DNA of 60,718 bases, counting the filler, from Sphacelaria rigidula (Eukaryota), in NCBI GenBank assembly GCA_964200075.2. It is 8 parts of 8 records of this genome, joined end to end, with 100 filler letters (N's around TTAATTAATTAA, not from the genome) between each part and the next. Parts side by side here need not be neighbours in the genome. Positions count along the whole stretch, not along the records: positions 15,207 to 22,708 come from CAXNAA020014617.1; 7 more parts are not named here. The stretch is one strand, 5' to 3'. Positions 7,504 through 48,406 of the stretch are shown one piece after another. The position numbers and the translations under genes are program-made. The stretch's first letter is position 1. The number at the start of each line of letters is the position of its first letter. Below the pieces are notes generated by a model. The model saw only the letters and a list, made by a program, of their open reading frames with translations, did not search any database and was not told where the DNA came from.

Positions 7504-7603
7504 NNNNNNNNNNNNNNNNNNNNNNNNNNNNNNNNNNNNNNNNNNNNTTAATTAATTAANNNNNNNNNNNNNNNNNNNNNNNNNNNNNNNNNNNNNNNNN
7601 NNN
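7504..7603. other. Artificial contig linker N44-TTAATTAATTAA-N44
   Basis: Identical 100-nt spacer with stop codons in all six frames. Confidence 0.98.
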
Positions 7604-7659
7604 ATGCGAGGTCAATGGTCTGATGACTATGGCATGCATGATCATGAGTACCCCCCCCC
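7604..7659 (+). mobile_element. Non-LTR retroelement 3' end, family F2, poly(C) tail
   Basis: ATGCGAGGTCAATGGTCTGATGACTATGGCATGCATGATCATGAGTAC followed by a C run; same as 22635-22708, 37140-37246 and 48285-48406. Confidence 0.65.
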
Positions 7660-8432
7660 ATCCCCGGATGATGCCTGTTTCGCCAGCTCGACAAGTCAGG
7701 GAAAATGGACCCTTCAATTGCCCAGTATATATCCTTTATCAATATGTCCCCTCAAACTTTTTATAACATGTACATTCACTTACATCGCTTTCAGCGGTGT
7801 AGCCGCAAGAAGCAGGTTGGCCGGGCAATTTACCGGGGCAACTGAGTTTGAAATTCTCATCACACGTGGGTAATGTACATATAGTCCGTCACCTCATGTA
7901 GGGTAGTACTTCGCCTATGCAGCCCCTTTGACCATGTTTTTTTCAGGAGGTCGGCCTGAAAAGTGTCCAGGTATGGAAACGTTTGACGCACGGGTGTGAG
8001 ACCGCGAGCCACGGGTAGGGCTGTGCAGTAGGATCCCCGATTCAGTACGGTATAGCGTGGGCTTGTTTCGACCGCGTTGAGGTGGAACGCCGCGTTGATC
8101 TATTGCTGTGCATATTCTCGATTACGCAGCTTGTTATCGTAGTCAGGTAGAGAGCCCGCACTACAAGGTATCACCCTTCAACAAGACCCCGTAACTCCGA
8201 AACTGTGAACTGTCGAGCGGTAACTGTCACTGTTTTTGTTTTCGTTGTATGGCCTGACCTGTTGCGCTGTGTTGATCGTCGCTGCACGCAATTGTGAGTG
8301 CTCACGTGCTGGAAGCAGTGAGTACCGTGGAAGCAAAATTATTGCGTGGAGCTATCTGACGCAGGTCCACACACATCAACAAGGGCACAACGAAATGAAC
8401 CATTCAACCCACCAACCGATGGTTGTTGTACT

Positions 8433-15106: not shown

Positions 15107-15206
15107 NNNNNNNNNNNNNNNNNNNNNNNNNNNNNNNNNNNNNNNNNNNNTTAATTAATTAANNNNNNNNNNNNNNNNNNNNNNNNNNNNNNNNNNNNNN
15201 NNNNNN
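15107..15206. other. Artificial contig linker
   Basis: N44-TTAATTAATTAA-N44. Confidence 0.98.
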
Positions 15207-15416
15207 AATCACAAAACGAGGGGGGGCGGAAGTTGTGGGGCGGGCGCCGAGGGGCGGGGGGGTGGGCCCCCCCCCCCCCCCCCCCCCCACCCACTCCCGT
15301 CGGGACACGACGGCTTCTGACGATACTCACCGCTCCCCGGTCCCCGGTCACCCCATCTGCGCATTGCACGCCTACCCCCGGTGCGTACACCAGAATACTT
15401 AACGGCCGCAACGGGG

Positions 15417-17680
15417 ATGGACGCACTGGGGGACAAGGACGAACAGGTCACTGAAGAGAATCTGTACGCCGACTTGATGGCTGAAACACCGGACGGGTTA
15501 AATGCAACAAGGGAGGCGCAGCTCGGTTGTGGGGATGCTGAAACGCGCACAGGCCTTGGTGGTCCTGCAACCGACCGATCCACGTCGACCGAGGCGCTCC
15601 CGACTCGGTCGGCAGCAGCGGAAATAAGTGAAGCTCCGAACAAAGCCAAGGGCAATCGTGAGGTGAACAGACATATGGGTCGATGATTCAGGCGTCTGTT
15701 CATCTGCTCTCCGCAGGGCTGGGATTATGTCCCGCATTTGTGTGTTTGGTTTCGTCCGCGGCTTTTTCTCCGCGTTTTTGTGGGCATACGTTTACATTTG
15801 TTTTCGCCTGTTTTGTCGACCCGCCAACGTGACAATTATACCTGGCGCTATTCTCGTGCATCATATCTCGCCGATGGGGTCGACTGTGCCGGCGCCGGAA
15901 CTCATGGGCTTCCTGTTTAATCCCTAGCACACACTGCTGTTACGCTATCGCAGAAGTTTCAGTCTATCATCCGCAAGAGTATTCGGAACCTGCCTGTCGT
16001 CAGCCGAGTTGCTGACGCGGTGAAGAGGAAGGTGCTGAACCGTTGTAAGGAGGAAGCGGAGTGGTTGGTACCTCTAGCGAAAGCCGTGATGGTCCTTGCC
16101 GAGTCTCGTGTAGAGCTTGAACGCATCTGGCTGAAACTCATCGCAGTACTGCAGGCCGTCATGACGGGTCCCGCCAACTCCACGCGAGCTTCGAGGTTCA
16201 CAAAGTTTCGCCAAGAGGGACGTCATCAAGATATATTGAAGTCCGTCACTCAGTCGGCCGTGGAGGCCGCGGCGTCAGCCCACGTCCATCACTTCGGCGC
16301 TGACGGCCCAAGCCCCAGAGCGAAGCGCCCCTCGCGGCCTGCTATCTCTTCGTCGAGCAGGCAAGATCCCATTACTGTGCTCGTCCCCCGCCACTGCCAT
16401 CCCGCGCGCCGACGGTGGTGTGTCAGTACGACAATTTTTCTCCCTGGCGACCTTATTTCTGCCTAATATCTGCGCTGTCCCCATTGTATGCCTTTCCCGT
16501 CTTTGCGTGTTCAAACACTAACGGTGTGCCCCCCTCATCCCTTTCCCACGGTGGTACCGTGCCGTGGTTTTTTGTCTTCCAGGCCACGCACGACAGGCTG
16601 CAAACCGCCATCGAGGACGTCAACATGGTCAAGTTCAGGTACCCCAGGGGTGCGTTGGAATTGCTCCCCGATCGCGCCGCTGTGTTGTGCATGGTCTCCG
16701 GCTGGTTACTCAGCAGCGGATTCACGTACGTGCGCCGGAATCGCCACGATGGTCACTTGTTTTTACCTTTGTTGAATGCTCAGAAGTATGATAACAAAGC
16801 AGATTTTGACCGCCGTGCGCCGGGCAACTTGCGTGGATTAGAGACGGAAGTGGTACGTCGCAACGAGGTGTATCAGGACAAGAGTCTGTTGTTCGTAACC
16901 GCTGAATTTTTCAGGCTGGTACAGCGTTGGGAGGCCGGGTATCGCCATGCTCTCTCCAAACCGTATCTTTCAGGCATTTTGGGGGGAAATCTTCCTGAAG
17001 AAATGAAAAGGGTTGTCGGAGGGGCAGAGGCGGTGCAAAAGCAGTGGCAGCAGTGCGTTCGTGCGGCGTCGGGGTGGGCCTCCGACCCACATGCTGAGGG
17101 AGCAGCGTACGAGTTCCTGCTGCAGAAATTCCACAACGTGCGGTTCGTCGAGTATTGCTGGCGACTGGGAATGGTTGCCGAACTTTTCAGGACGGAGAAA
17201 GCCACGCAACAGGCCCTGCGTGCAACGTTGAACGCCGCCCGCGCCGCCGCGAAGCCAGAAGCGCCGCCTGCCCGTAAAGGTAGCGATGGTGCTGCGCCTG
17301 GAGCGGGGGACAGTCACGAGCGTGCGAGGGCAGCTCTGATGGCACTGAAATTGACGGAGGTGTCCTTCGAAAGATTCACAGTCAGACAGATGAAGGAACA
17401 CATCGTGGGGATGGGCGGCAACCTGAAGGGGCAGAGTAGGGCCCCGAAACAAATCCTGCACGCGCAGCTGAGGCAACTGGTGCCGGGAATTATTGCCACT
17501 GGGGAGGACAGGGAACGATTGGACGATTTCCACGTCCGGGCGGCATCGGCGATAGAAGCCGCAGCTGTCGAAGAAGATTCCCAATCCTGTACCAAAGCCA
17601 GTGCCCTCCAGCATAATTTGTGTTTTGCGGTAGGATGGGTAGCGCGGAGATGTTGGGGTGGCCCGCTTTATGGTGAATGA
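15417..17680 (+). CDS. Spliced gene, probably transposon-associated (P-element C-terminal-domain-like motifs plus SAP-like motif); exons about 15417-15662, 15954-16360, 16583-17680; one probable frameshift
   Basis: ATG at 15417; the GT-AG intron 15663-15953 joins in frame. Exon 3 is open for about 365 codons after TTTTTTGTCTTCCAG. The likely exon 2 donor is CAG|GCAAG (GC-AG), which needs a 1-nt frameshift. Motifs: VLCMVSGWLL, DKSLLFVTAEFFRLVQRWE, FLLQKFHNVRF, QALRATL; SAP-like FTVRQMKEHIVGMGGNLKG...KQILHAQL at about 17363-17482. Confidence 0.6.
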
Positions 17681-20223
17681 CATGCGGCAAAGTTGAAGTC
17701 TCCCTCGTAAAAGGCACGCTAGTCCACGGCGAAGTTACGAATCTGCGGCATACGTCATATCAGCTGGTTGTGTGATGAAAGCCCCCGAGACCTCTGCGTA
17801 TGGGTTGCTGTGGGGTAGGAGCATGGTAAGAACCGCCTACCCATGCAGTGTCGGTAAGTCGGAGCTCGTAGCGGTTGGTACGGTACGCGTTCAGGTTGGG
17901 AACTGCCGTGTGCAGGAAATGCCCAAAGAATCCTGCCGGGATTGCACATGTGTGCATGTCAACACCAGTGCAAAGTTTTACTGCAATATCTAGAAAATGG
18001 CGTTCATCCTGGATGCGATAAATACGCGCATGGTGCATCGTGTGAAGCCTGCCTGTTTTCATTTTATTCCTTCTCTATCTCCAGCAAAGGAGCACATCAC
18101 TCTCCCCACTACAACCCTTACGCGGTGGATAGGCAACGTGTATGCAAGCCATGTCGATTACGCGGTTCATTTCTAAGGAGTAGTACTCTAAACGTTGCAC
18201 TTAAATAACGGCACCAGCTGGGTCAGCCGTAAATCCCGCTTTTGCACGTCACACCATGACTCATGAAGTTTGCCAAACCAGCCGGACTTGTGATCTGCAG
18301 ACCAACGTGGTGACACACGGGACCGCCGCTGAATGAAAAAGAAATGCGAAATGTACTGCATAATGTACCGCGTAAGTGACGGGAAAATAAATGTGTCTGC
18401 TGGGATGCGATCTCGTGACTTCCACTACTGAAGTCGCCTGTATCATTTGCATTAAAGGAGCGCAGCCGTGCAACACGGGGAGTCTAATGCTGCACCAAAT
18501 TTGTGGAATTATTTCCCGGAACTACTCAAGGATCTCCTCCACACAAGGACGCACAACTACACTGGGGATGCACACGGGTGTCTATATTTTCACCAAGTCG
18601 CAGCACTTGTTTAATTTTTGCAGAAACTTCAAATATCTTTATTTTTATGTAGGGTTGGGCTTCCCGGATAAGTCTGCGCCCGGTGGTCATGAAAATGTCA
18701 GGTCCAAATTTGAGCGCCCGACGGTTCGAGTTACCCACCGCCCGGCCGGAATTCATTTTCAATCACTGCCAGCTGGCCCACCTCGTACACCTACTAATTA
18801 TCACCGTGGTCCATTGTACTCCTTTCGAATCATGACTTTCGATACATTCTTCGAATTATTTAGCACCTGGCTTTCAAGTTACGCCTGAAATTACGACTTC
18901 GGTTGGGCGCAGTTGTTGTACCTTGGCTCAATTTCTCGTGTCGTTATATCGACAATTGATGTGAAAATTGCCGTGGAGAATCGTAGAGGCATCGTGATAA
19001 TAACAATTACTTCGCCTTCATTTGGTTTCTGTGGGAGAGGAGGCGATGGTGAAAGAATTGATATTAGACGCAGTGATTCATCCGTGACTCGTCACTGTAA
19101 TATATGGAGATAACAACATGCGCGTCAACCGTTCATGTTGTACATTTGTTATCAGTTGGCGATTTTCTCGGGCTCTTCCTCTCGCCACGGGTCATCACAT
19201 CGAGGGTCTGAGTTAAGAGCGGATGCTCCACGGAATAAAGTGAAAAAATCATATTTGCTCTCCGCTGAGTGTCTCACGGCCTGAGCAATCATCGGAGGTC
19301 CTCCCACGCGTTATCCCTCAGGTTCTGAGCGCTTGGTATTTTCGGTCAAAAGGGCTTGTCCCGCTTGTATTTGCAAATAAATATGCAGGATTGTAGTTTC
19401 AAACTATATGTGGTCATTTTCCTACAGCCGCAGACCTGTGTTTCACGGCCAATACCACCCTCCTGACAAACGGAGTGTCTACTCGTATGGCCCCACGAAA
19501 TAATCCAACACTAACGTGGGCAATGTCCTTTGGGAACATCATAATTCCGTTTACAAAATTCTGCCGCCGCCAGTTTTGAGAGTGGGGAGATATCCGTAAC
19601 GTAAAAAGATCATTACGGAACACGATGTTCAACTGAGTGAGAGTTGGTGTCACCGGGCGATACGAGCACATACCCGGTGATTATGAGGGTGTTACTGACG
19701 GTGGCACGCTGTTTTGTAGCTGTAGTGTAATGATTAAATCAAATTCACCACAAGAGGCGAGCCTTTGCATTGGCAGATAACGATTCGCATCACGCGATCA
19801 AATAAGGTGAAGAATCAAAGTCCAACGGCGAAACGACTACCACAACAGGCTGTACGCAACGTGCTCCTGCTCGCGCAGTCGCCGACGGGATACGAACCAG
19901 GAAACGGACATCGGGGTACCGCCGACGGGACCGCATCCTATACACCAATAAATCATCAAAAGTCACTCGCAACTCCCCATAGACTCTTCCTATCCCGCAA
20001 TCACTATACGCTCTGCTTGCGCAACTCAGGGCTGATCAGCGGCTGCAGGCGTGATACCTCATCACACCAGTACGCACCCCAACTACGGCATCATGAAGCG
20101 ACAAGAAAAAATGGAATCGGCGACGCAGCAGAGACAGGCCAATATTAGCCCACGCATCGTTGTGATCTCTGCTCGAAGTCCACCCCTGTCCAAACGTACG
20201 TTCCGGCCAAGATCCCTTCTCCA

Positions 20224-22572
20224 TCACAAGTTGCCAATATCTTCCATCCGCGGGGACAGGCGTGTGTGATCCGGCCTGGTCCAATCTACAGCCCAGGGCT
20301 CAAGCATATGGGCCACACAGTCCCATGCCGGAGATCTAACCGGCATTTTTATCTCGACAGCGTTTGCTGGCAACACCACTACCGCTGCCGTCCCTCCGAG
20401 ATCTATGAGGAAGTCGATATTCCCTCGCTTTGGATCAGCGTTCCGTCGCTGTCCTCCATGGAATGAGCGCGCCTTCGTGGGGTGCCGGATTGAACCCACC
20501 CCGCCTCGGATGTGCGCGAAGCGGTGCCCAAGAACATCCTGGGATTCGGGCAAAAAGAGGAAAAACATGGCATGAGTGAACGACAGTAACAGTTCAATCC
20601 CGCTCGCGTGCACCCACACGCGTCGGCGAGCGTGGTACAAGATCATGCACACAGACGCGCCGAAAAGAGTTTCCGACCTGACTGAATACCCGAGGGTGAA
20701 GAAAGCGCCGCTTCGATCCCTCTTGCACCCAATTTTGATGTTTGAAAATGTATCGGCACATGGCAGTGAACCCGAGTATAGTTAGGCAGATGTCGAACCA
20801 AGACTGGTGGGTGATGAAGGCGGCGCTCGCGGATTCCGGGCACAAGGCATCAAGATCCTCTTTCCATTCACCGAAAAACTGCAGAATCTCAAGCAGCCTG
20901 TCGAGATGGGCGCTCTTGTTGGCGAAGATGTAACCGGCATATTCCCTCTCCCCCTTCTTCCTGTCGAGCTCGGAGGTTACCGCAACGGCATCAATGATTA
21001 GCGTAGAGTCGTCACTTCATAAATGTGGATCCTGGTAACGACCAGGTTGGGTCCTACACGCAGAAGCAATGTGGGGGAAATTAGGTGATCCGATCAGACC
21101 GCCGGAATTCTTGAAAGGTTGGCATTTCACCTGGGATCCCAACAACTCGGTTATCGAAATGTACGCTTATATAGCGCGTAGTATTTATCAACGGCCCCCA
21201 TGTTTAGGATATGCGGTGCGGATACGGAGATGTGAATTATCCGGGAATCTCACCCTGAACAAAAATCCGTCCCCAATTAGTAAAACATTGTAAGAAATAA
21301 CAGACGGCTGTGGAGCGAACAGTAAATCCATATATTCACCATTGAAAACGTCGCTGAAGTCGTTCACATTTGCCGCTAGTGCGGCGTAGCATCGCTGAGG
21401 ACCGTTGACCTCCGTCTGGCGCCGCGGAGCAGACTCCTGCATCGGCACAGCGGATCGCGACATGCACTGCGAGATGCAAACACACGAGTCGGACGTTGTT
21501 CTTCTCAGGTGTTTTCACCAGGCGGGGGCAGGACGCAAGCCACCTCCCACGCGTGATCGCGCTCGGCGCCAATTCCTGATTGCAATCGACCACGCACCTT
21601 GTTAGCCAGGCCGACGTTTATGCAGTTGTGACTGTTTCTCGAAAACTGCTCGGGGGTGAGACTCCGAAATCTCGTCCACTCCGCGACTTGGTCCTCAGGA
21701 CGAGTACTGCCCAATCCCAGCTCTTCATGGTTGTACACTTCCGCGAGTTTTCTAAGGGAAAACTCGCTGTACTCCCCCTCACCGGTGGCGGGGTGAGCCC
21801 ACCACATTCCAAGGCGATGTTGTTTGCCATCAATGTCGCTGTGCGATAAAGCGTTCACAAGTTTCTTCACTACGTGCTACGGGTCGGAGAGGTTGAAAAT
21901 CGGTTTGTCATGATATGGATGACGGAAAGCGACGGGGAAGTCGGCGAACGTAGTCTCGAGGTCACTCGATGCATGTGCCCACTGCCCGAACGATTCCGTG
22001 GCGAACGATGAATGGAACCTTCGGCTGCAGGATCGCGATCACACTTCAAATTCGTGCGCAGACAGAGGGAGGGGGGGTTACGACACGCGAGCATGATATA
22101 TCACGTTTGCACACGGGAGTATGCGGCAATCATACAACCCCGCTAGACTAGCGCGGAGGTTCGCTACTGTGTGATCAATGGCAAGGCGCGAACGACGGAT
22201 ATTAATTCCTGTCACAATCGAATCGGTCTTTTGATCAGAGCAATAACAATCAATCATGGCCCAGGTTCGTACTGCCGAAACGATGGGCGTTCGCCCGTAA
22301 ACAAGACGCCACTCGACGGCGCAGTAACGCGTTGAGTGATATTTGGCAATATTCGGGGAAGACGGAGGCGACAGGATCACCTGCACTGACTGCTCTGAAG
22401 CGCCGTCGCCGCACGTGGCAATCACGTCGAACATCGTGTCCTCGTGAGCAACGATGAGCGAGATGAGAATCTTCTCCAACATTGTCGCTATGTAGTCGTG
22501 ACTGAGGGACACGACAGTCTCGCGAAACACGACAAAGCGATAGTCGGGCTTGCCGATGCTAACGAAGAACAC
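20224..22572 (-). pseudogene. P-element/THAP9-superfamily DDE transposase, 5'-partial and inactivated; exons 22572-22391, 22024-21598, 21466-21340, ~21031-20678, 20538-20224
   Basis: The GT-AG spliced translation gives P-transposase motifs in order: VFFVSIGKPDYRFVVF, VIATCGDGASEH|RRF (second catalytic D), FRHP...IFNLSDP*HVVKKLVNAL (D(2)H), HNCINVGLANK|CMSRSA, NVNDFSDVFN, LEILQFFGEW, FITHQSWFDICLTILGF, FLHPRVFSQ|DVLGHRFAHIRGGVGSIRHPT. TAG at 21877-21879; GGG at 20527-20529 where the catalytic Glu is expected; probable frameshift near the start of exon 4. Confidence 0.85.
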
Positions 22573-22634
22573 CTGTATGACCAACAGTAGTTCCGAATAA
22601 AACCTTCCGTGTGTGAATACGACTATATCACCAA

Positions 22635-22708
22635 GGGGAGGGGGGGTGCACTCGTGATCATGCATGCCATAGTCATAAGACCATCGACCTCGCATCCCTA
22701 CAAAGCCG
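22635..22708 (-). mobile_element. Non-LTR 3'-end family F2, in a probable transposase intron
   Basis: Reverse complement CGGCTTTGTAGGGATGCGAGGTCGATGGTCTTATGACTATGGCATGCATGATCACGAGTGCA followed by a C run. Confidence 0.7.
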
Positions 22709-22808
22709 NNNNNNNNNNNNNNNNNNNNNNNNNNNNNNNNNNNNNNNNNNNNTTAATTAATTAANNNNNNNNNNNNNNNNNNNNNNNNNNNNNNNNNNNN
22801 NNNNNNNN
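22709..22808. other. Artificial contig linker
   Basis: N44-TTAATTAATTAA-N44. Confidence 0.98.
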
Positions 22809-37139: not shown

Positions 37140-37376
37140 GAGCCTGGCCCGGCGGAAACCCGATGTGCTCCGTACCGGTTATGTAGGGATGCGAGGTCAA
37201 TGGTCTTGTGACTACGGCATGTATGATGATGAATACACCACCTCCCACGTCCGTCTCGAAGGGATGCGTGGTCAATGGGCACACGACTAAGGCAGGCAAC
37301 AAATGAGTACGCCCCCCCCCCCCCGGTGGTCAATGGTCAAACGACTAAGGCAAGCAACAAATGAGTACGCCCCCCC
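37140..37376 (+). mobile_element. Head-to-tail stack of three non-LTR 3' ends (F2 ~37140-37246, F1 37250-37324, F1 37326-37376)
   Basis: Each copy begins within a few bases of the C-rich tail of the previous one. Confidence 0.75.
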
Positions 37377-48284: not shown

Positions 48285-48406
48285 CGCGCTTGGAGATTGC
48301 GAGCTTGGTCAGTGGAAAATCCGGAGTGCTCCATCCCGGCTTTGTAGGGTTGCGAGGTCAATAGTCTTATGACTACGGCATGCAGAATCAACACTACACC
48401 CTCCTC
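48285..48406 (+). mobile_element. Non-LTR 3'-end family F2
   Basis: CCCGGCTTTGTAGGGTTGCGAGGTCAATAGTCTTATGACTACGGCATGCA followed by a degenerate C-rich tail. Confidence 0.65.

Follow-up and report, generated by a model that had tools for sequence, protein, structure and literature searches.

A candidate P-element-like transposon of the brown alga Sphacelaria rigidula in which the transposase C-terminal domain may lie on a separate, convergent gene

A P-like transposase pseudogene and a convergent partner gene

In a 60,718-nt stretch of DNA from the brown alga Sphacelaria rigidula (assembly GCA_964200075.2; hereafter the window), we found two damaged, spliced genes standing tail to tail, a P-like transposase pseudogene on the minus strand (20224-22557) and a three-exon partner gene on the plus strand (15417-17683), the latter encoding a protein that is predicted to fold like the C-terminal domain (CTD) of P element transposase. 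A stand-alone gene for a P-CTD-like domain, lying 2.5 kb from a P-like transposase without that domain, is hard to ascribe to chance. Our tentative reading, to which we give just under an even chance, is that the locus holds two genes of a brown-algal P-superfamily-like DNA transposon family, that the CTD of the transposase is carried on a gene of its own, and that both copies seen here are dead. We know of P element transposase and THAP9 solely as single polypeptides, and literature searches listed no report of P-like elements in brown algae and none of a P element with two genes.

The window is composed of eight pieces of 7502 nt joined by spacers of the form N44-TTAATTAATTAA-N44, with N runs at 7504-7603, 15107-15206, 22709-22808 and onward every 7602 nt. 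Both genes lie in the third piece (15207-22708, from CAXNAA020014617.1), whose ends are arbitrary cuts and limit the view to 7.5 kb. An earlier note on this DNA had placed the two genes in one contig, which is right insofar as they share a single piece, but the piece itself is a 7502-nt cut from a concatenated window. Neither a comparison of the pieces nor a profile of the partner family detected relatives of the partner or the transposase in the other seven pieces. Assembled contigs were drawn from two DNA runs (X1 and X4) and from two further runs (X8 and X10) that we guess to be RNA, none of the listed runs being on record as such.

Predicted fold of the partner protein

The earlier note had likened the partner by eye to the missing CTD, quoting the motifs VLCMVSGWLL, DKSLLFVTAEFF and FLLQKFHNVR. 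These begin at 16682, 16877 and 17114, respectively, are present as quoted in one shared plus-strand frame, and turned out to be conserved motifs of a real family. An AlphaFold model built on an alignment of 48 family sequences (A2) reached a mean predicted local distance difference test (pLDDT) score of 80.6 and a predicted template modelling (pTM) score of 0.65, with residues 21-230 mostly above 90 and all-helical. When this model was compared with 48,161 representative solved chains using VIA-align, rank 1 was taken by 6p5a_B, Drosophila P element transposase residues 617-734 (Z 10.9, root-mean-square deviation 2.4 Å, 118 of 118 residues aligned, 12% identity), against model residues 25-202. 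The predicted CTD-like domain, all-helical and corresponding to exon 3 residues 25-202, is thereby located at 16655-17188. The runner-up reached Z 7.0 and the chain at rank 50 reached Z 4.6, and in a second comparison, made with Foldseek's best 989 chains, 6p5a_B was again first (10.9), followed by Z 5.3. The structure 6p5a is the strand-transfer complex of Drosophila P element transposase, and its residues 617-734 are the CTD (PMC7776569).

A chance match of fold is disfavoured because the target had been named beforehand, the whole target chain is covered and the score lies about 4 Z units above the rest. The suggested likeness to the CTD was thus borne out in the predicted fold, whose best match among all 48,161 chains is the P transposase CTD; structural comparison, one of the means of checking proposed in the earlier note, gave a divided result, with VIA-align placing the P CTD first and Foldseek returning no significant match. 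By this comparison of a predicted model, a P-CTD-like fold of the exon 3 product is supported.

Beyond the CTD-like domain, the model contains one long helix of 55 residues (169-223), followed by a set of short ones (243-299) coinciding with a helix-extended-helix (HeH)/SAP-like motif, FTVRQMKEHIVGMGGNLKGQSRAPKQILHAQLRQLVPGI (17309-17482), which was recognised as a conserved block of A2 and by Pfam at the family level. Pfam HeH (PF12949) was found in 2 of the 48 A2 members (best E 1.5e-5) and SAP (PF02037) in 1 of 48 (E 0.16); in P0011 HeH was matched at E 0.098. The SAP-like motif described earlier finds some support at the family level, with model helices at the same place, but the window's own partner copy has no HeH or SAP match in Pfam.

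Structure, splicing and damage of the partner gene

The partner gene consists of exon 1 (15417-15662), a GT..AG intron (15663-15953), exon 2 (15954-16360), a GC..AG intron (16361-16582) and exon 3 (16583-17683, stop included), as read from splice-site letters and frames in the DNA together with a spliced contig. This contig, 1596 nt long and present in X8 and in X10, connects 15383-15660, 15952-16328 and 16580-17239 at about 93% identity (about 7% differences); its first joint is GT..AG, and it backs the junction across the GC..AG intron in both runs. Since the spliced contig occurs in the probable RNA runs and both splice joints are absent from the DNA runs X1 and X4, a paralog of the partner, about 93% identical to it, is transcribed and correctly spliced. 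The partner junctions, for which the earlier note had recommended confirmation from RNA, are backed in this way by a paralog's spliced contig.

The partner opens with its own ATG, and its protein has about 585 residues when read across a frame break at 16328-16329, where one base is missing from the window copy. The DNA variant in X4 carries an extra G behind 16328, and the probable RNA contig has 30 letters before CAG versus 29 in the window. The spliced coding sequence of 1754 nt is no multiple of 3, and its frame ends at codon 282. Given the missing base and this early stop, the window's partner copy is a pseudogene, with a single visible frameshift. Exon 3 lies within a stop-to-stop frame extending from 16304 to 17680.

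An independent family of partner genes

A word-based search retrieved one homolog of the partner (P0001, 53% identity). With a two-sequence profile, an exhaustive HMMER search of 1.84 billion representatives yielded 66 proteins at E<=0.001, each representing a cluster formed at the 50% level; of these, 45 passed E<=1e-10 and 14 passed E<=1e-30. P0052, a repeat protein with AIR9 Ig domains, proved unrelated, which leaves 65 family matches. Among 20 matches that were looked up, 18 derive from Logan, ENA and JGI assemblies. Two matches carry names, both brown-algal and both unnamed as products: CAM9461927.1 from Scytosiphon promiscuus and CAM9340953.1 from S. rigidula, the latter sharing 76% identity with exon 3 of the window copy.

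The alignment A2 is made up of the window protein and 47 of the 66 matches; the 19 omitted sequences (P0017, P0036, P0040, P0045, P0048, P0052 and P0054-P0066) were short, weak, multi-stretch or unrelated. Its conserved blocks read 'VLYfiAGWLLS', 'RN....G.gLlF....FF.FV..lE.GY', 'LGDLP.E...VV' and 'F.F...KwHN.R', followed by a C-terminal block, 'l....l...i...GG......K..L...Lr.l.PGI'. Conservation also extends to the N-terminal part of the protein. A region encoded by exon 2 (15954-16328), here termed domain X and without an assigned fold, was matched by phmmer in P0007 (8.5e-10), P0011 (8.7e-5) and P0005 (8.5e-4), while the exon 2 translation had no match in Pfam. Because exon 2 is conserved in these proteins, the partner is an independent gene family and no stray or inverted 3' exon. 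The idea that domain X repeats the '..PT..F..R' segment behind the catalytic motif of the transposase was rejected, as a three-sequence profile missed the transposase tail and its best other open reading frames (ORFs) had E of about 1.

Four proteins, P0030, P0034, P0045 and P0046, match 16467-17274 in the other two frames of exon 3 (1.2e-5, 5.5e-11, 0.002 and 2e-7, respectively), so that partner copies in other assemblies are frameshifted too. With its 66 representatives, extra sequencing depth over the gene, and frameshifted members here and elsewhere, the partner family looks mobile, and its many divergent, frameshifted members fit a gene of a mobile element better than a host gene.

The transposase copy ends without a C-terminal domain

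Frames and motifs on the minus strand outline a spliced P-like transposase pseudogene whose 5' part lies beyond the piece end at 22708. Its coding blocks, which fall in different frames, were recognised by translation at 22557-22390 ('IGKPDYRF...ATCGDGASEQ', with 'ATCGDGASEQ' at 22419-22390), about 20938-20678 (ending in 'RVFSQ', 20692-20678) and 20544-20224 ('SQDVLGHRFAHIRGGVGSIRHPTKARSF...', with 'SQDVLGH..IRHPTKARSF' at 20544-20461), and by alignment with four homologs at 21996-21595 ('ESFGQW...FNLSDP-TAG-HVVKKLVNAL...NVGLANKV', where 'FNLSDP', the TAG and 'HVVKKLVNAL' together occupy 21897-21847). 'SQDVLGH' (20544-20524) stands where P-type transposases have their QDxLE motif, to which E531 of the fly enzyme belongs. 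We take the G of 'SQDVLG' to occupy the glutamate position of that motif, so the SQDxLE region named in the earlier note is present, but literally as SQDVLG with G replacing E. As for the catalytic triad, 'GDGAS' (within 22419-22390) and 'SQDVLGH' were placed by eye, whereas no first D was located, and it may fall beyond the cut end of the piece.

The stop codon (20226-20224) comes 106 residues beyond the S of 'SQDVLGH', in line with the some 100 codons given previously. A profile of the partner family, run against all frames of the window, matched the partner alone and no second CTD behind the transposase stop, and inspection by eye of the minus-strand ORFs of 17700-20227 showed no CTD-like sequence. 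The lack of a C-terminal domain that the earlier note reported thus holds for this decayed copy.

The copy is damaged as well. When the block 21996-21595 was searched with an X in place of the premature TAG (21879-21877), four homologs of 68-72% identity were obtained, and in their alignment the TAG column is Q in P0076, P0077 and P0079 and G in P0078; the TAG is therefore a nonsense mutation. Both genes are accordingly decayed, as had been supposed, the partner by the base missing after 16328 and the transposase by this TAG. A homolog search with the first transposase block, set to longer lengths, found none.

P transposase has a helical GTP-binding insertion domain between beta5 and alpha4. 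In the ESM Atlas, residues 60-202 of P0076 gave a best score of 0.96, and 20 of 30 matches belonged to a set carrying PF21788 (TNP-like_GBD), a family annotated on just 18% of that cluster's members; another cluster near P0076 carries PF21788 and PF21787. The Pfam families PF21787 (RNaseH_N), PF21788 (GBD), PF21789 (RNaseH_C) and PF12017 themselves did not match the minus-strand gene, and an AlphaFold model from the transposase exon alignment A4 (6 sequences) had a pLDDT of 37.8 and was unusable. The P-type label of the earlier note is supported by motifs placed by eye and by language-model neighbours, but not by sequence searches of Pfam or PDB, which gave zero matches. We therefore call the gene P-like: a putative P-like transposase pseudogene, typed by its motifs and language-model neighbours with no hidden Markov model (HMM) match.

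Contigs of X8 and X10 are absent over most of the transposase, which says nothing about its expression. They cover about 50 nt of it (20491-20541) at depths of 130-335, with loose ends on both sides, and this segment encodes the most conserved transposase motif, 'LGHRFAHIRGGVGSIR'. The coverage may come from transcripts of diverged transposase paralogs.

Spacer, copy depth and linkage

The stop-to-stop distance between the tail-to-tail genes is 2.54 kb (17683 to 20224), which reproduces the 2.5 kb and the convergent arrangement noted before. Within this spacer, a high-copy repeat at 18219-18720 has summed X1 depths of 27,035 and 4,241, where single-copy contig depth in X1 is about 62-73. A second repeat at 19223-19724 has a summed depth of about 450-900 against about 65 for single copy. 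Both repeats are probably later insertions that pushed the genes apart.

Over the partner region (15458-17967) the X1 depth is 122-607, about 2-9 times single copy, so extra partner copies exist at at least 90% identity. The transposase region (19976-21732) stands at about 128-284, repeat spikes aside, and depth falls to the single-copy level in the bins 17968-18218, 19725-19975 and 21733-22485. From the raised depth over both genes, it follows that each has at least one close extra copy. Just 5' of the partner start lies a tract rich in G/C homopolymers (15248-15303); since the contigs of all runs break in it, the 5' boundary of the repeated unit cannot be placed.

A repeat search of 15207-22708 returned just two inverted pairs; they are weak (75% and 82% complementarity) and lie inside the genes. 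Scans of metagenome contigs (with P0016 and the transposase profile A3) and of viral contigs (profiles A3 and A1) detected no relatives. Joints in DNA contigs, such as 18641 to 22661, were considered as deletion derivatives and rejected, as their sides are 21-28 letters long and touch hyper-abundant repeats. The third piece shares with other pieces a short repeat and nothing more: a stretch of about 70 nt at 22635-22708 recurs at 84-90% identity in piece 2 (7604-7665), piece 5 (about 37176-37242) and piece 7 (about 48337-48404). This repeat lies outside the transposase frame and is hyper-abundant, with a summed contig depth of about 3 million in X1 and G-rich loose ends.

Weighing the alternatives

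Several observations weigh against a split transposase. Sequence-based searches tie neither gene to P transposases. Pfam gave no family at E<=1 or E<=10 for any exon translation or for P0076-P0078 (HMMER filters discard most matches above about 0.1), and no P-transposase family, PF12596 (Tnp_P_element_C) included, for the window partner protein, 23 matches and the 48 A2 members; PDB sequence searches with two transposase exons and profile A3, or with the partner and the family profile A2 (E<=10), did not recover P transposase, and their best matches across partner, exon and profile searches were unrelated (E 0.12 to 1). On the structural side, Foldseek found nothing in PDB at E<=0.001 (best E 0.51), and the Z of 10.9 is below about 13, the level that the comparison tool deems safe for helical bundles. 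The linked pair was observed at one locus only, and the closest partner paralog does not visibly carry the whole pair, since depth over the spacer bins and over the 5' part of the transposase (21733-22485) does not exceed that of single-copy contigs. The fly P element has 31-bp terminal inverted repeats (TIRs) and an 8-bp target-site duplication (TSD); TIRs or TSDs were not found in 15207-22708, although the termini may fall beyond its cut ends. It is also possible that intact copies of the transposase carry their own CTD exon, and a transcribed partner paralog would also fit a domesticated gene.

This last point leads to the most serious contender, which we consider rather doubtful: that the partner family descends from a P-type CTD and is now independent, whether domesticated by the host or carried as cargo by another element, so that its place beside the transposase is a relic or chance and it is no enzyme subunit. 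Such independence agrees with the transcription and correct splicing of the roughly 93% identical paralog, and with the extent of the extra copies at at least 90% identity, which span the partner (15458-17967) and neither the adjoining spacer bin (17968-18218) nor the transposase 5' part. In addition, none of the 65 partner-family proteins, including ones of 717, 521 and 431 residues, has a transposase-like part, and the annotated brown-algal CAM9461927.1 and CAM9340953.1 are CTD-only models. A conserved host gene is not expected to form 66 clusters at the 50% level with frameshifted members, however, and adjacency by chance is unlikely if a genome of hundreds of Mb contains some tens of copies of each family, figures that we estimated and did not derive from the genome. 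Alternatively, the shared fold could be a common helical arrangement, the partner being unrelated to P, the minus-strand gene perhaps a member of another [C/D]xxH cut-and-paste superfamily, and nothing split. The failure of sequence-profile methods to link either gene to P transposases, the lack of a Foldseek match, an ESM Atlas score for the partner at chance level (0.80) and the tool's warning that helical models can reach Z below about 13 by chance are all in keeping with this, as is a curated table of Ectocarpus transposable elements (TEs) that lists no P superfamily (PMC12477816). We nevertheless regard it as unlikely, given that the best of 48,161 chains was the target predicted beforehand, aligned over its entire chain at 2.4 Å and about 4 Z clear, and that the nearest language-model clusters of the neighbouring gene are independently P-type (PF21788, PF21787).

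The partner might also be a fragment of an ordinary P-like element with one gene, either its 3' end after inversion or rearrangement or the tail of a second copy; convergent orientation, decay of both genes and repeats inserted in between would all be natural for a rearranged gene. This reading is largely refuted and we hold it to be very improbable, because the partner starts from an ATG of its own and has two exons ahead of exon 3, P0007, P0011 and P0005 keep exon 2 with no RNase H part before it, and the paralog transcript shows the same three-exon splicing. Moreover, a profile of exon 2 fails to match the transposase tail, and the two genes have no detectable overlap.

Proposed mechanism and significance

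If the locus does represent a P-like transposon with a split transposase, the minus-strand gene would supply the catalytic body, an RNase H-like fold with its insertion domain that ends about 100 residues past the last catalytic motif. The plus-strand gene would encode a protein of about 585 residues with an acidic N-terminus, domain X, the P-CTD-like helical domain, a long basic helix and the HeH/SAP-like motif. The CTD supplied in trans would take the position of the linker-tethered CTD of the fly enzyme, and the transpososome would be heteromeric, with the HeH/SAP-like motif contributing DNA binding. A CTD acting in trans is physically plausible because nothing but a flexible, disordered linker holds the fly CTD to its RNase H domain. 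For such a system we infer that the two genes would stand under one set of termini, that the partner and transposase proteins would bind each other, and that intact transposase copies would likewise be without a CTD. The complete picture, namely a brown-algal P transposon with its catalytic body and DNA-contacting CTD on convergent genes, a CTD that gained an HeH/SAP motif and a hetero-oligomeric transpososome, is possible, and we put it somewhat short of even.

Were it true, P-type transposases would have their first two-component member, nature would have provided an experiment with a P CTD working in trans, and a P-type case would join the small group of eukaryotic cut-and-paste systems that use two proteins. 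With such a natural pair of genes, the CTD as a separate protein could also be tested directly, through excision assays with either protein or both. P-like elements would then occur in brown algae, versus none in the curated Ectocarpus TE table; in the same source, 'P element' and 'THAP' are absent from the main text, and both these terms and 'Tnp_P_element' are absent from four text supplement files (PMC12477816). Even if the partner is an independent family, a stand-alone transcribed family with a P-CTD-like domain and an HeH/SAP-like motif, matching nothing in Pfam, is a new object, perhaps a piece of transposase that was domesticated, perhaps a protein that regulates transposition.

Comparison with known systems

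Canonical P and THAP9 transposases are single six-domain polypeptides, and the fly enzyme has the catalytic residues D230, D303 and E531 and an entirely alpha-helical CTD, which a flexible disordered linker connects to the RNase H domain and which is placed against the other subunit, as described in PMC7776569. The algal genes resemble this system in that partner exon 3 residues 25-202 superpose on 6p5a 617-734, and in that an all-helical domain is followed by a basic helix (PMC7776569). Read by eye, the minus-strand gene further has GDGAS, DPxHxxKxxxN and SQDxL..F..IR....PT in the placement of the canonical P-type motifs. Unlike in Drosophila P and THAP9, the algal CTD is on a separate, convergent three-exon gene, fused to an N-terminal region and an HeH/SAP-like motif, and the partner is too divergent for Pfam and PDB HMM searches (12% identity in the structural alignment). 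Also unlike in those systems, no THAP domain, TIRs or TSD were seen in the algal piece, beyond which lies the 5' part of the transposase.

PIF/Harbinger elements offer a two-gene cut-and-paste system in which the second protein binds DNA and is needed together with the transposase (PMC2836001). In Ectocarpus, Harbinger elements carry their two genes tail to tail, an arrangement that the algal pair shares by analogy only (PMC12477816). Their transposase belongs to an unrelated superfamily and their Myb/SANT-like second protein is no detached transposase domain; their two genes belong to one element, whereas for the algal pair a shared element is only proposed. Transposition machinery is divided between two element-encoded proteins in ProtoRAG (RAG1-like and RAG2-like), Tn7 (TnsA and TnsB) and CACTA (TnpA and TnpD) as well, and the two ProtoRAG genes are likewise convergent, tail to tail. 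These families are unrelated to the algal pair, and their second protein, unlike the one proposed here, is no former CTD of the catalytic subunit.

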